IMG/VR virus record: IMGVR_UViG_2974511964_000001
Span: 1-64,000 of that record
Length of the DNA stretch: 64,000 nt
DNA from: a virus
Taxonomy: Duplodnaviria > Caudoviricetes
Reading direction: 5' to 3' (one strand)
A model generated the notes under the pieces. It saw nothing but the letters and a program-made list of their open reading frames with translations. It had not been told where the DNA came from and made no database searches. Position 1 is the first letter of the stretch. Every line of letters begins with the position of its first letter. Shown in pieces: positions 43,662 through 47,340 of this stretch. The translations under genes and the position numbers were made by a program.

Positions 43662-43698
43662 AAAAAAAGACCTTACAGAATTAACTGTAGGGTCTTTT
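43662..43698. terminator. Bidirectional terminator between the lysin and the convergent NAD operon
   Basis: AAAAAAAGACCTTACAG/CTGTAGGGTCTTTT. Confidence 0.85.
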
Positions 43699-43711: not shown

Positions 43712-44248
43712 TTACTTATTACTAATATTTCTAAACTCTTTAATTGCTAGGTTAGCAGCCGCCGAGTGTACTTGGTTCTCAGCAGAATTTAGTGACACCC
43801 ACTTCCAGTCTCCGATGTATTCATCATCATCAAAGTCTGTACTTACCATCTTGTAGTTATCACTAGTTAGTCTAACGATGAAAACATGAGAACGTTCATC
43901 TGTGAAACCCTCTGATAGAGTATAAATTCCAACTCGTTTAAACGCTTTAGGGTCAACTAGCAATCCTGTTTCCTCTTGCAATTCTCTACGAGCGGTAACA
44001 TAGGGGTCTTCATCTTTCTTAATCAACCCTGCTGGAAAGCCAGCAACCGTTTTGTAAAGTGGGCTACGGTATTCATATTCAATTAATACTTTGTTATCTT
44101 TATTAACGACTAGCATTGTGATTGAATCCGACTTTTTAATTATTTCTCGATTAGCTACAACGCCGTTGGCTAACTTAATAGACAAACGATATAAATCAAA
44201 TATAGCACCTTTAAACAGCTTCTCAGAGCTAATTACTTTTGGATTCAT
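43712..44248 (-). CDS. Nudix hydrolase, ADP-ribose pyrophosphatase (NudF-like)
   Basis: Nudix box GLIKKDEDPYVTARRELQEETG; ADPRase-type N-terminus, SEGFTDE and DDDEYI. Confidence 0.88.
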   Translation of the reverse strand: MNPKVISSEKLFKGAIFDLYRLSIKLANGVVANREIIKKSDSITMLVVNKDNKVLIEYEYRSPLYKTVAGFPAGLIKKDEDPYVTARRELQEETGLLVDPKAFKRVGIYTLSEGFTDERSHVFIVRLTSDNYKMVSTDFDDDEYIGDWKWVSLNSAENQVHSAAANLAIKEFRNISNK

Positions 44249-44250
44249 AA

Positions 44251-45357
44251 TTACTTACCTCCATTTTTAATTAGCTCTAAGGCTCTCTCATAGCGTGCTA
44301 GGAACCCTTGTGGGTCAGAGCTGTCACCCTTATCGTCTAAAATAACTACTTTGTCAGAAAACCCCTGATTTGAAATCTCTTCCATTAGGTTGTCGTGAAA
44401 GGCATCCCTAGTGCTTTCCCAATCCATATTTCTAAACCCATCATCAACATATTTAGTTACAGGTGGGATAACGATAATTAAATCCCACTCTTCTTTTTTA
44501 ACCGTATTGGCATAAATCTGAGTAAGGTTTTCATAATCCTCTTTAGGAAGATACATCTTAGCATAGACATTAGTAACCATAGCATCAGTGTCACAAATTA
44601 CAATTCCTTGATTAGCTGGGCTATGCATTTCAGCTTTGTTAGCATCATACTGTCCTTGAAAGAAGTGTGAGTAATCATCAACAGTTAGTTCATCATCAGT
44701 TAGATTATACTTTTCTTCATAGTAACGGGCATACTCGGTACTAAATGGAGCATTAACTGAACGAGCTACGTGTTTAATAAGTGTTGATTTACCAACAGAT
44801 GCTGAGCCAACAACCAATACCTTATAGGTAAAGTGACGCCGGAAAACACGATTGATATAGTTCCAATATTTATGTGGGTCATTGCGAATCATTGTTGCTG
44901 ATATTGGGATTACTTTTCTGTCTTCTAGTTTAGTATGCCATTCAGGTAACAGCTCATGGAATTTGTCATCATATTCTTGTTCGCCTGTGTATACTGTGAT
45001 TTCAGCATCCTTATTTGTAGTTGCTTTATCCACAATTTCTTCGAGTTTTAACAACCAAGGCTTCCAACCGTCAGGATAGCGTGGAATATTATCTTCGTTA
45101 AGCATAGCTACCACAATGTTAGGCTCATCAGCAAAGGCTTCTCTTAAATATCTAAACCGTTTATAAAGTGGTAGTCCGATTTTATCTCCTCGGTCACCTT
45201 TATAGCCGCTTACGACTAGTACAACACCATCGTTAACAGCTAGCGCTCTGTATAAATCTTGTTGATGACCCGAGTGGAATGGTGACCAAGTCCCAAAATA
45301 TACACCAATTTTATTACCTGAAAGTTTATTCTTTGTAATCAATTCTAAATTATTCAT
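44251..45357 (-). CDS. nadR: Bifunctional NMN adenylyltransferase / nicotinamide riboside kinase (no HTH)
   Basis: FGTWSPFHSGH (HxGH), ISATMIR, Walker A GSASVGKS, EYAR, CDTD, YVDDGFR; ATG 45357 after GGGGT, coupled to the pnuC stop. Confidence 0.93.
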   Translation of the reverse strand: MNNLELITKNKLSGNKIGVYFGTWSPFHSGHQQDLYRALAVNDGVVLVVSGYKGDRGDKIGLPLYKRFRYLREAFADEPNIVVAMLNEDNIPRYPDGWKPWLLKLEEIVDKATTNKDAEITVYTGEQEYDDKFHELLPEWHTKLEDRKVIPISATMIRNDPHKYWNYINRVFRRHFTYKVLVVGSASVGKSTLIKHVARSVNAPFSTEYARYYEEKYNLTDDELTVDDYSHFFQGQYDANKAEMHSPANQGIVICDTDAMVTNVYAKMYLPKEDYENLTQIYANTVKKEEWDLIIVIPPVTKYVDDGFRNMDWESTRDAFHDNLMEEISNQGFSDKVVILDDKGDSSDPQGFLARYERALELIKNGGK

Positions 45358-46120
45358 TATTAGATACCCCACTATTGTTTTCCTTTGTGTACCAAACGTA
45401 AGCTCCATAAATTGCATTAATCGTCATAATTATTTGTAGAATAAACATGCTTAATGCAGAAGCTCCACCACTAGTTAACTGAACATACCAAATGTAAATA
45501 TTTAACAAATCTAGTCCAATCCATACGACCCATTGTGAACGGTACCCATATGTCATTAGAATTTGACCAATAATACCAAGTGGCAATACAGCACTATCTC
45601 TTAGAACTTGATTACCATTAAATTTGAATCCAATATAAACATTTACGGCGTAAAGTGCTAGTAATCCTATTACAGTTAACGTAGCTAATAGTGGGGTAAT
45701 CTTTTTACTGATAACACTATCATCATTTGAGCTATTTAACGTTTTATACCAAACGTAGATACCAACGAACTGCATGATAGTATAAAATATTTGAGAAGAA
45801 ATATCCCCAATTAAACGGTTATGCAAAGAAGCAATTAGCCATGATAGGCTACCAATTGTTCCCCACATGAAATTGGTTAGCTTGCCCTTATCTACTAGTA
45901 TTAAACTCATAGCAGTAGCTACACTAGTAATTACTCCAGCATAACCTGAAAAAGAGAAGTCACCTTGAAACATGAAAGCAACAATTGAAGCACCAACCAT
46001 AAGGAACATTAGTAAATACTCCTTATAATTAAACTCTGTTAATTCCTTGATATTACGCTTAATTGAAAACGTATCTTTAATGCCAGTACCTAATAATTTA
46101 TAATCTATATTTTTAGTCAT
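45350..46120 (-). CDS. pnuC: Nicotinamide riboside transporter
   Basis: About seven TM helices; KGKLTNF, GQILM..YRSQWVVWIGLD, NAIYGAYVW; adjacent to nadR. Confidence 0.92.
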   Translation of the reverse strand: MTKNIDYKLLGTGIKDTFSIKRNIKELTEFNYKEYLLMFLMVGASIVAFMFQGDFSFSGYAGVITSVATAMSLILVDKGKLTNFMWGTIGSLSWLIASLHNRLIGDISSQIFYTIMQFVGIYVWYKTLNSSNDDSVISKKITPLLATLTVIGLLALYAVNVYIGFKFNGNQVLRDSAVLPLGIIGQILMTYGYRSQWVVWIGLDLLNIYIWYVQLTSGGASALSMFILQIIMTINAIYGAYVWYTKENNSGVSNNE

Positions 46121-46127
46121 AATTTTA

Positions 46128-46171
46128 TCTCCTATTGTTTTTACTGTGCCGTGGGCGGAAAGAAACGCACA
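46128..46171 (-). promoter_or_regulatory. Compact NAD+-II (pnuC-motif)-like riboswitch
   Basis: UGUGC-GUUUCUUUCCGCC-CACG-GCACA-GUAAAAACAAU-AGGAGA: P1 UGUGC/GCACA, CACG element, A-rich AAAAACAA linker, and loop UUUCC able to pair with the pnuC RBS GGAGA (H-type pseudoknot). Matches my recollection of the class consensus and its pnuC context. Confidence 0.75.
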
Positions 46172-46223
46172 TTTTTATTTAATTTTATTTTCCGTCTATA
46201 TGATATTTAATACTAATCATATC

Positions 46224-46253
46224 TTATGGCGGAGGTCTAAGAGTTATATCCAT
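46224..46253 (-). CDS. Leader peptide uORF MDITLRPPP
   Basis: AAGGGAG RBS (46265-46271) just after the promoter; ATG GAT ATA ACT CTT AGA CCT CCG CCA TAA. Confidence 0.6.
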   Translation of the reverse strand: MDITLRPPP

Positions 46254-46281: not shown

Positions 46282-46310
46282 AGTATAGCACTAAATATAT
46301 CATTTGTCAA
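46282..46310 (-). promoter_or_regulatory. Sigma-A promoter of the NAD salvage operon
   Basis: TTGACA-17 nt-TATACT with a TG extended -10. Confidence 0.85.
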
Positions 46311-46379
46311 TATAATTATTACTAATATTTATAAATGTATGTTTATTCATATAACTATACTTTATTCATTCTATCAAGT

Positions 46380-47340
46380 ATTGTCCGAATGGTCCCGGCT
46401 TAGAACCCGGCCTAGGCTGAGACTATATAATATTAATAGTGTGTCTTCGTTAGTATTTAGTTCTCAACGTCTTGTGGTCTACGTCCCGCTAGTAGTTTAT
46501 AAGCGTTATTAGTCCAGCCCACCTGATTACCATAAATATGTAATCAAAAATCTTTAAGTTCAAGTTCAAATTCCTTATTATGTATTAATAAATCAATCCT
46601 AAACACATGCTATCATACTTAATCTGTAAAACGGTTTTGACCTTGACTCTCCTGCTGTTCAGAGAGAGGGAGTAAGTGAATGAGATACAGTTAGTCCATA
46701 GATGGATAGTTTAGCGTAAATCTATTACTAGAAATACAATACTAAGCTAAGCTCTATGGACAATAACTGCATAATAACTAATTAACTAATCCAACTGTTC
46801 GTCGGTCGGTCGGTCGGTCATTTCAACAGGAGTTGGTTATTCAAGTCACTACGTATTGCTATCCTAACATTGGTTACTACATTGAGTGTTAAGCGATTGT
46901 TTTCTTCATCATGAGGACTTATCGTCTAGCTTTATTATAATCTATTAGGATAGCTCAGCATCTATACTTGTAATACTAACCTAGCTACCAGCATTCCAGC
47001 CACTGGTAGGTTATTCGCATAAGCAGGTTAATATCTCCACCCGTTTTCAGGGCACTGGAAACCTCTTACAGCATTTATTTAACGACCTGCTACTCGGTCA
47101 AACCCACCACTGCAACTCCTAAACGGTGGGTTCCTAGTCACTTTTATAGAATCGGAGGGACTATTCAAATATGCTCCTGTCTCTTTTTGTTTGGTATCAG
47201 TGAATATTACCTTTAGGTGGTCTCGCCTATTGGGTATCCCTATTAAGTTTTAAAGTTATCTTATAGCTCTGCGCATTTCGGTAACTTCTTTTGTAACTAG
47301 GCTATTTAGTTATCCTCGGTTAGCCGTGTAACCTTATTTT
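46380..47340 (-). ncRNA. Candidate large structured ncRNA (~950 nt), class unknown
   Basis: No ORF of 60 aa or more in six frames; many nested stems; own leftward promoter. Boundaries and strand are approximate. Confidence 0.6.
46801..46819. repeat. (GTCG)4-GTC tetranucleotide repeat in a hairpin loop
   Basis: Directly visible; enclosed by CTGTT/AACAG. Confidence 0.85.

Follow-up and report, generated by a model that had tools for sequence, protein, structure and literature searches.

A natural NAD+-II riboswitch variant without helix P1a likely heads a phage NAD+ salvage operon

The leader of a phage gene for nicotinamide riboside import raises the question of whether a virulent phage carries an RNA that senses the NAD+ pool of its host. 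Metabolite riboswitches on virulent phages are few. In the literature we searched, which did not cover all journals, there was no report of a natural NAD+-II riboswitch without helix P1a or of one borne by a phage. We consider it likely (probability roughly 0.82) that positions 46171 to 46128 of the minus strand are such a natural P1a-less NAD+-II variant, heading the phage NAD+ salvage operon, with ligand binding and regulation inferred.

The operon and its leader

The window, meaning the whole 64,000-nucleotide stretch that was analysed, is part of a 138-kb virus record whose nearest relatives are the Lactobacillus plantarum Herelleviridae phages Bacchae, Semele and Lpa804. Identity to these phages at this locus is 95–98%. 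The operon comprises the following features.

45350 to 46120, minus strand: pnuC, nicotinamide riboside transporter, 256 aa (Pfam PF04973, NMN_transporter, E 2e-27)
44251 to 45357, minus strand: NadR-like NMN adenylyltransferase and ribosylnicotinamide kinase without a helix-turn-helix (HTH) domain, 368 aa (Pfam CTP_transf_like and AAA_28)
43712 to 44248, minus strand: Nudix hydrolase (Pfam NUDIX, E 2e-15), annotated in relatives as ADP-ribose pyrophosphatase
43665 to 43698, no strand assigned: 14-bp hairpin with A and T runs on its flanks, likely a two-way terminator closing the operon (from sequence)

Against the PDB, the NadR-like protein matched 6gye, a lactococcal-type NadR (E 1.6e-137), and 9x6f, the enzyme of the NARP3 pathway (E 2.8e-44). 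The start of its gene sits inside the end of pnuC with an overlap of 8 nt, whereas a gap of 2 nt separates the nadR stop from the Nudix gene. The longest open reading frame for the NadR-like protein is 388 aa (44251-45417, minus strand) and starts 68 nt within pnuC. In relatives the annotated start is the ATG at 45357 (368 aa), and the resulting overlap, ATGAATAA, is typical of coupled genes. The annotation of phage LP65 splits the NadR-like gene into two ORFs (orf84 and orf85), for which a frameshift or a sequencing error may be responsible.

Three further features lie between the promoter and the proposed riboswitch or define the promoter itself.

46282 to 46310, minus strand: sigma-70-type promoter, TTGACA, 17-nt spacer with TG, TATACT (11 of 12 consensus matches)
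46224 to 46253, minus strand: leader mini-ORF MDITLRPPP plus stop, with its own GGGAGA Shine-Dalgarno (SD) sequence; the LRPPP core is kept in LP65, LpeD and the copies L183 and L185
46198 to 46222, minus strand: A-U-rich hairpin (AUAUGAU ... AUCAUAU) directly past the mini-ORF, from minimum free energy (MFE) folding

The promoter is the sole strong site upstream, and the same promoter is present in the metagenomic relative L188. It predicts a leader of about 155 nt, with the element about 110 nt downstream of the promoter. The mini-ORF between promoter and riboswitch is conserved (it was noted in L002, L003, L183, L185, L187, L199 and L201), and its peptide reads MIDRLRPPPYVIILS in LP65, MEENLRPPPNICTNV in LpeD and MLNSNSPP in L187. 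Its proline codons differ synonymously between phages, which suggests that the mini-ORF is translated. Host pnuC leaders are short and have no mini-ORF, making it a phage-specific addition. RxPP motifs with proline at x are reported to be ribosome-arrest sequences (PMC12992588), and it is possible that the mini-ORF, with its RPPP arrest-type peptide, provides a second regulatory input.

At the site of the A-U-rich hairpin, LP65, LpeD and L183 have differing sequences that, judged by eye, are also capable of forming a hairpin; RNAalifold did not call the hairpin at 46198 to 46222. A stretch after the hairpin, GACGGAAA, could pair with UUUCCG of J1 (−7.4 kcal/mol), but a role for it as an anti-sequestor is speculation only and the motif is absent from LP65. 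A long-range pairing proposed by RNAalifold between CUCC in the proline codons and GGAG of the SD was not adopted either, being only 4 bp, broken in 2 of 7 sequences and without covariation.

Some observations concern the surroundings of the leader. In Lpa804 an HNH endonuclease gene lies immediately upstream of it. In the metagenomic phage copy L200, only the riboswitch and three codons of pnuC precede a 290-aa ORF (L200:19-891, minus strand) that resembles an HNH/NUMOD-type homing endonuclease. The locus appears to be a target of mobile endonuclease genes. Upstream of the promoter, a stretch of about 110 nt (46377-46484, minus strand) has 85% identity to unannotated sequence in an unrelated Lactobacillus siphophage, ATCC 8014-B2; it contains a GC-rich hairpin (CCGGG...CCCGG-like).

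The element and its fit to the solved structures

Read 5' to 3' on the minus strand, 46171 to 46128 consists of UGUGC, GUUUCUUUCCG, CCC, ACG, GCACA, GU, AAAAACAAUA and GGAGA. Its parts, in the numbering of the crystallized RNA, are listed below.

46167 to 46171, minus strand: 5' strand of P1, UGUGC, pairing with 46145-46149 over 5 bp
46156 to 46166, minus strand: 5' strand of J1, GUUUCUUUCCG, mapped onto the crystal numbering
46153 to 46155, minus strand: CCC linker joining G15 to A39 where the class has helix P1a (from sequence)
46150 to 46152, minus strand: A39 C40 G41, unchanged in all 29 sequences; C40 is the partner of G6, and G41 is a contact for nicotinamide riboside
46145 to 46149, minus strand: 3' strand of P1, GCACA, pairing with UGUGC; the top pairs G4-C43 and C5-G42 are as in the class
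46133 to 46144, minus strand: J1K tail, consisting of a GU turn, A49-A53, C54 (46137), A55 A56, U57 and A58 (crystal numbering)
46128 to 46132, minus strand: SD sequence GGAGA, also the 3' strand of the pseudoknot; G59 G60 A61 pair with C14 C13 U12

Within GUUUCUUUCCG the order is G6 U7 U8, then U9 C10 U11 and an extra U, then the pseudoknot strand U12 C13 C14 (46159-46157) and G15. The tail at 46142-46133 reads AAAAACAA, followed by U and then A; A49-A53 correspond to the minor-groove triplex on P1, C54 to a ligand contact and position 57 to a flipped-out residue. The pnuC AUG is at 46120, 7 nt past the GGAGA. By way of two extra U residues the pseudoknot could extend to 5 bp, UUUCC with GGAGA, including one U-G wobble. 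Its duplex energy is −5.2 kcal/mol in the phage, compared with −4.6 for the host type and −3.9 for Streptococcus. The predicted secondary structures of the element and of the whole leader were no more stable than those of shuffled sequences (z of 0.83 and 0.48). This is expected for a small ligand-dependent pseudoknot aptamer; the result is uninformative and lends no support.

In the crystal RNA (Xu et al. 2023, PMC9841397), P1 joins A3 G4 C5 to G42 C43 U44, and J1 comprises G6 U7 U8 A9 C10 G11, the pseudoknot strand U12 C13 C14 and G15. The rest of that RNA is made up of A16-A18, P1a, A39 C40 G41, U47 U48, A49-A53, C54, A55-A58 and G59 G60 A61. The phage RNA is identical to it at G4, C5, G6, U7, U8, C10, U12-G15, A39-G41, G42 and C43, and likewise at A49-A56 (C54 included), A58 and G59-A61. 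Mutagenesis in the same study found G41, C54, the G6-C40 pair and the three pseudoknot pairs to be intolerant of change, and G11, A16-A18 and A57 to be tolerant (PMC9841397). Every core position that mutagenesis showed to be essential is kept in the phage copy.

The diagnostic features of the class are mostly met. The J1 residues G6, U7, U8, U12, C13, C14 and G15 are all identical in the phage, the location in the 5' leader of pnuC is as expected, and the 3-bp pseudoknot between U12-C14 and G59-A61, over the SD, is present by sequence, the pairing itself being inferred. Two features are not met. A purine at position 9 with a 3-nt middle of J1 is replaced in the phage by U9 and a 4-nt middle (UCUU); in bacteria position 9 is G in nearly all copies and A in a few Streptococcus, and the middle of J1 is always 3 nt. 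Helix P1a with its variable loop is also missing, with CCC in its place.

P1a is dispensable in vitro (PMC9841397, PMC10085692). Among the linkers tried between G15 and A39 in RNAs lacking P1a, C3 was the best, with a Kd for NMN of 18 µM (PMC9841397), and a split RNA that has no P1a could likewise be assembled with NMN (Peng et al. 2023, PMC10085692). The structural work distinguishes two ligand sites. Site 1 is critical and involves C5, G6, G33 and C46 in the numbering of Peng et al. (PMC10085692). Site 2, in the pseudoknot groove, is weaker and uses G9 and C10, and its mutants still fold with NMN at room temperature (PMC10085692). Position 9 is part of this second site and forms a base triple with the pseudoknot pair C13-G60. 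Site 1 is fully kept in the phage; site 2 differs, through U9 and one extra U before the pseudoknot strand. Because P1a is dispensable, position 57 flips out and position 11 is unconserved, the deviations of the phage copy are of a kind that can be tolerated.

Much of what the initial annotation proposed for this element was confirmed on the sequence, namely the minus-strand reading, a 5-bp P1, the ACG element, an A-rich linker and the complementarity of UUUCC to GGAGA. Its spacer of 8 nt to the AUG was slightly wrong, the distance being 7 nt. The absence of P1a also held, but the remark that this occurs in minimal variants is only partly right: the variants in the literature are engineered, and natural P1a-less forms were found in Lactobacillaceae in the present work. 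The annotation did not mention that the phage J1 differs from all bacterial copies (U9 and the extra U), a difference that touches the weaker second ligand site.

Searches, conservation and bacterial relatives

Rfam cmscan returned no match at the site, either at gathering thresholds or when stretches of 601 nt and 101 nt were scanned with E allowed up to 10. Authentic NAD+-II riboswitches of S. parasanguinis and S. sanguinis served as positive controls, under the gathering thresholds and, on 131 nt, with the same relaxed E limit, and were missed too; the family is not represented in Rfam 15 and the negative result at the phage site is therefore uninformative. RF03013, which was tried first, is the class I nadA motif and gave no match. 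That the Rfam run itself worked is clear because it detected a PreQ1 riboswitch (RF00522, 43 bits) at L045:3722-3767 on the minus strand. The distance from this PreQ1 riboswitch to the pnuC leader of Leuconostoc palmae is about 1.4 kb.

We searched instead with a pattern of core positions, restricted to those common to the crystal RNA and the phage, and with two covariance models from which the phage sequence was excluded. The pattern had 1 match in the 64-kb window and none in 100 shuffles. In bacterial contigs, taking one genome per species, it found at least 120 loci, mostly Streptococcus copies that bear P1a and agree in sequence with the S. parasanguinis RNA from the literature. Model R1 was built from 12 distinct Streptococcus sequences (P1 and P1a), and model R2 from five bacterial P1a-less sequences. 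With filters off, the element was the sole significant match in the window for each: R1 scored it at 26.6 bits (E 3e-4; next best 10.8 bits) and R2 at 42.2 bits (E 1.8e-8; next best 9.3 bits). The covariance models found a single copy in the whole 138-kb phage genome. These scores are somewhat favoured, since the training sequences were collected with a pattern fixed where phage and crystal RNA agree. This bias is mitigated by the fact that the Streptococcus training set is the published family.

In an alignment of 29 distinct homologues (A4), all 5 pairs of P1 have changed on both sides and 100% of cells still pair. The covariation score is 0.425, compared with 0.082 for shuffles; none of 500 shuffles reached it, and slid controls collapsed. 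The G6-C40 pair and the pseudoknot never vary (29 of 29), as in the published class. Covariation support is limited to P1 because the pseudoknot and most of the core are invariant.

Among phages, the 46-nt element is 100% identical in Bacchae, Semele and Lpa804 (Harbinvirus), LP65 (Salchichonvirus) and LpeD (Elpedvirus), and the leader upstream of it has strongly diverged across these three genera of the Herelleviridae. Metagenomic relatives were gathered through PnuC homologues. One of them, L187, whose PnuC is 72% identical, has CGUGC/GCACG in place of UGUGC/GCACA, a compensatory change from U-A to C-G in P1, together with UAC in place of CCC as linker and a UU rather than a GU turn. L188 deviates at the turn and at position 57 only, and across the J1K tails of the phage copies variation is confined to these two places. 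Both L187 and L188 retain the phage-type J1, with U9 and the extra U, and three more metagenome copies are identical and lie in phage contexts. The phage-type J1 was seen in phage contexts only and is strictly conserved there. Wherever the element is present, it directly precedes the PnuC gene. It is absent before the distant phage pnuC genes of Lbab1 and L189-L192, where pnuC abuts the upstream gene. In IMG/VR the element was found only in known L. plantarum phages; a broad pattern of the bacterial type gave 20 loci there, which we rejected as chance matches (no P1 or SD, R2 E >0.07).

The core pattern also revealed 37-nt copies without P1a before pnuC in Leuconostoc palmae, four Fructobacillus species and Lactobacillus sp. 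Sy-1. R2 matched in 26-28 of 151 sampled Lactobacillaceae genomes, the two weakest matches being doubtful. These copies precede PnuC-family genes of two subfamilies; their linkers are 2-4 nt long (AAC, AUG, AAU, UU and others), and a few keep a P1a hairpin. In the host genus, Lactiplantibacillus pentosus, L. carotarum and L. fabifermentans carry ACAGC, GUUGCUUCCG, AUC, ACG and GCUGU before their own pnuC. Because the host genus has the P1a-less form too, phage and host would place related sensors in the same cytoplasm.

Some Lactobacillaceae genomes have two P1a-less leaders (L132 and L133 in G001, L137 and L161 in G027, L135 and L162 in G050). In these genomes one copy precedes a phage-like PnuC and the other a second Pnu-family transporter, whose N-terminus reads ...AKSKxFDLxG...SGYLFE...VTHWG and which had no phmmer match with the phage PnuC.

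The identification as an NAD+-II-like riboswitch, already made in the initial annotation, is thus upheld by the position-by-position fit, the overlap with the SD and two covariance models. A search with NAD+-II and mini-NAD+-II covariance models had been suggested as a check; no mini-NAD+-II model exists, and the purpose-built R1 and R2 both match the site. A lack of P1 and CACG conservation in related phages had been named as grounds for refutation. What we found was conservation, with a compensatory P1 change in L187 and an invariant ACG.

Earlier accounts assign the motif to the genus Streptococcus, with covariation seen in P1a alone. In the literature searched, NAD+-II was known only from Streptococcus and only with P1a; it now extends, without P1a, to about one sixth of the sampled Lactobacillaceae genomes and to phages. 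A riboswitch class regarded as rare thereby becomes larger, the P1a-less set gives it real covariation support in P1, and an engineered minimal aptamer proves to be already present in nature.

Proposed mechanism, alternatives and known systems

The mechanism we propose is inferred from the published structures. When NMN, NR or NAD+ is plentiful, the nicotinamide riboside moiety would stack between the C5-G42-A53 triple and the G6-U7-C40-A55 tetrad and would form hydrogen bonds with G41 and C54. Binding would lock P1, the A-minor triplex of the A-tract and the pseudoknot between UCC (up to UUUCC) and GGA(GA), hiding the pnuC SD so that initiation is blocked. A drop in the pool of oxidised pyridine nucleotides would open the pseudoknot and allow pnuC to be translated. 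The nadR-like and Nudix genes would probably be co-translated with pnuC by coupling, as inferred from the 8-nt overlap of nadR-like with pnuC and the 2-nt gap before Nudix.

Several steps of this scheme rest on inference. Ligand binding has been inferred for the phage RNA from its kept core, as have the direction of control and the physiological trigger, and there are no binding or reporter data for any natural P1a-less form or any phage form. As a member of the class, the phage RNA would be expected to bind NMN, NR and NAD+ selectively and to leave NADH unbound. The literature on the class reports Kd values of 20-100 µM and cellular NAD+ in the millimolar range, from which we infer that the switch would be shut unless NAD+ collapses. 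It is likely that the phage expresses its import and NAD-synthesis genes only when the host NAD+ pool falls, but expression data are lacking. The initial annotation had drawn the same conclusion about translation, a reasonable inference for which there are no regulation data.

The alternative that deserves most attention keeps the fold and changes its tuning or specificity. With site 2 lost and a pseudoknot of up to 5 bp, the phage RNA might respond at another threshold, for example remaining shut until NAD+ is very low, or might have a changed preference among NR, NMN and NAD+. In its favour are the strict conservation of the phage-type J1, its restriction to phage contexts, the involvement of G9 and C10 in site 2 where the phage has U at position 9, and a pseudoknot energy lower than those of the host type and Streptococcus. 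Against it, nothing points to a different ligand, the critical site 1 is unaltered, RNAs mutated in site 2 can still fold with NMN at room temperature, and the pseudoknots differ little in energy. On balance we consider retuning less likely than not, without dismissing it.

We find it very unlikely that the leader is a relic, captured with pnuC from a lactic acid bacterium and now serving as a plain ribosome-binding region without sensing. The lack of functional data leaves room for this idea, and related phage pnuC genes (Lbab1 and L189-L192) manage without the element. A plain ribosome-binding site, however, would require neither 46 nt of complete identity over three phage genera while the nearby leader diverged, nor the compensatory P1 change in L187, nor the confinement of changes to structurally tolerant positions. 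The inverted repeat TGTGC-N17-GCACA, lying between a promoter and NAD salvage genes, could also suggest an operator in the DNA, bound by a dimeric NiaR- or NrtR-like regulator of NAD genes. Protein operators conserve sequence, not pairing. Here the arms covary freely with complementarity kept, and one of the pairs seen is G-U, which would not be complementary in DNA. The promoter lies about 110 nt upstream of the site, and outside the paired arms the sequence agrees with the aptamer core. These points make an operator very unlikely, and the P1a-less NAD+-II riboswitch remains our preferred reading.

Phage pathways that reconstitute NAD+ are a current topic in phage defence. In NARP3 (Yan et al. 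2026, PMC13464706), a phage PnuC and an HTH-less NadR rebuild NAD+ against Sir2-HerA; restoration of NAD+ and rescue of the phage from an NAD+-depleting defence have been shown for the coliphage system only (PMC13464706). The operon studied here resembles NARP3 in its Pfam and PDB matches and in placing a PnuC next to an HTH-less NadR-like enzyme, and a counter-defence role is inferred by analogy. A bolder reading, which we hold only tentatively and would not bet on, is that a tuned sensor of the host type acts as an alarm. It would be shut in ordinary infection and opened by an abortive-infection NADase (Sir2, TIR or SEFIR type), releasing a NARP3-like operon for import, synthesis and ADP-ribose clean-up, with the RPPP leader peptide perhaps as a second input. 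If true, a counter-defence would here be switched by an RNA that directly senses the effect of the defence itself. An RNA coupling such an operon to the NAD+ level would make phage sensing of NAD+ depletion directly testable with a 45-nt RNA, a reporter and NADase defence systems that are already known.

With the Streptococcus NAD+-II riboswitch (Panchapakesan et al. 2021, PMC7749635; structures in PMC9841397 and PMC10085692) the phage element shares a 5-bp P1 with G-C and C-G on top, G6 U7 U8, UCCG, ACG and the AAAAACAA tail, as well as the pseudoknot onto GGAG of the pnuC SD and the position before pnuC. It differs in having no P1a (CCC in place of AAA and a hairpin), U9 rather than G or A, an extra U in J1, U57 and a pseudoknot capable of 5 bp. 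The class copy is on the Streptococcus chromosome, whereas the phage copy, whose ligand binding is inferred, is on a virulent phage. The Lactobacillaceae leaders are like the phage in lacking P1a, in their 2-4 nt linker, in the shared core and in preceding pnuC; unlike the phage, they have a J1 of the form GUUGC[U/G/A]UCCG, and in the host genus the tail is 2 nt longer before GGAG.

Among the engineered C0-C3 aptamers without P1a (Xu et al. 2023, PMC9841397), the G15-CCC-A39 join of C3 is exactly that of the phage. Those RNAs and the split P1a-less RNAs (PMC9841397, PMC10085692) are laboratory constructs on a Streptococcus backbone, whereas the phage copy occurs in nature and differs from them in the middle of J1. 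The preQ1-like small riboswitches resemble it only in how they work, as a compact aptamer of <50 nt whose ligand-stabilised pseudoknot covers the SD; their fold and ligand are unrelated. At the level of the operon, NARP3 (PMC13464706) likewise combines PnuC with an HTH-less NadR-like enzyme in one phage operon. NARP3 was described in phages of Enterobacteriaceae, without a riboswitch and with no mention of Lactobacillus; the phage studied here adds a Nudix hydrolase and a putative RNA sensor.
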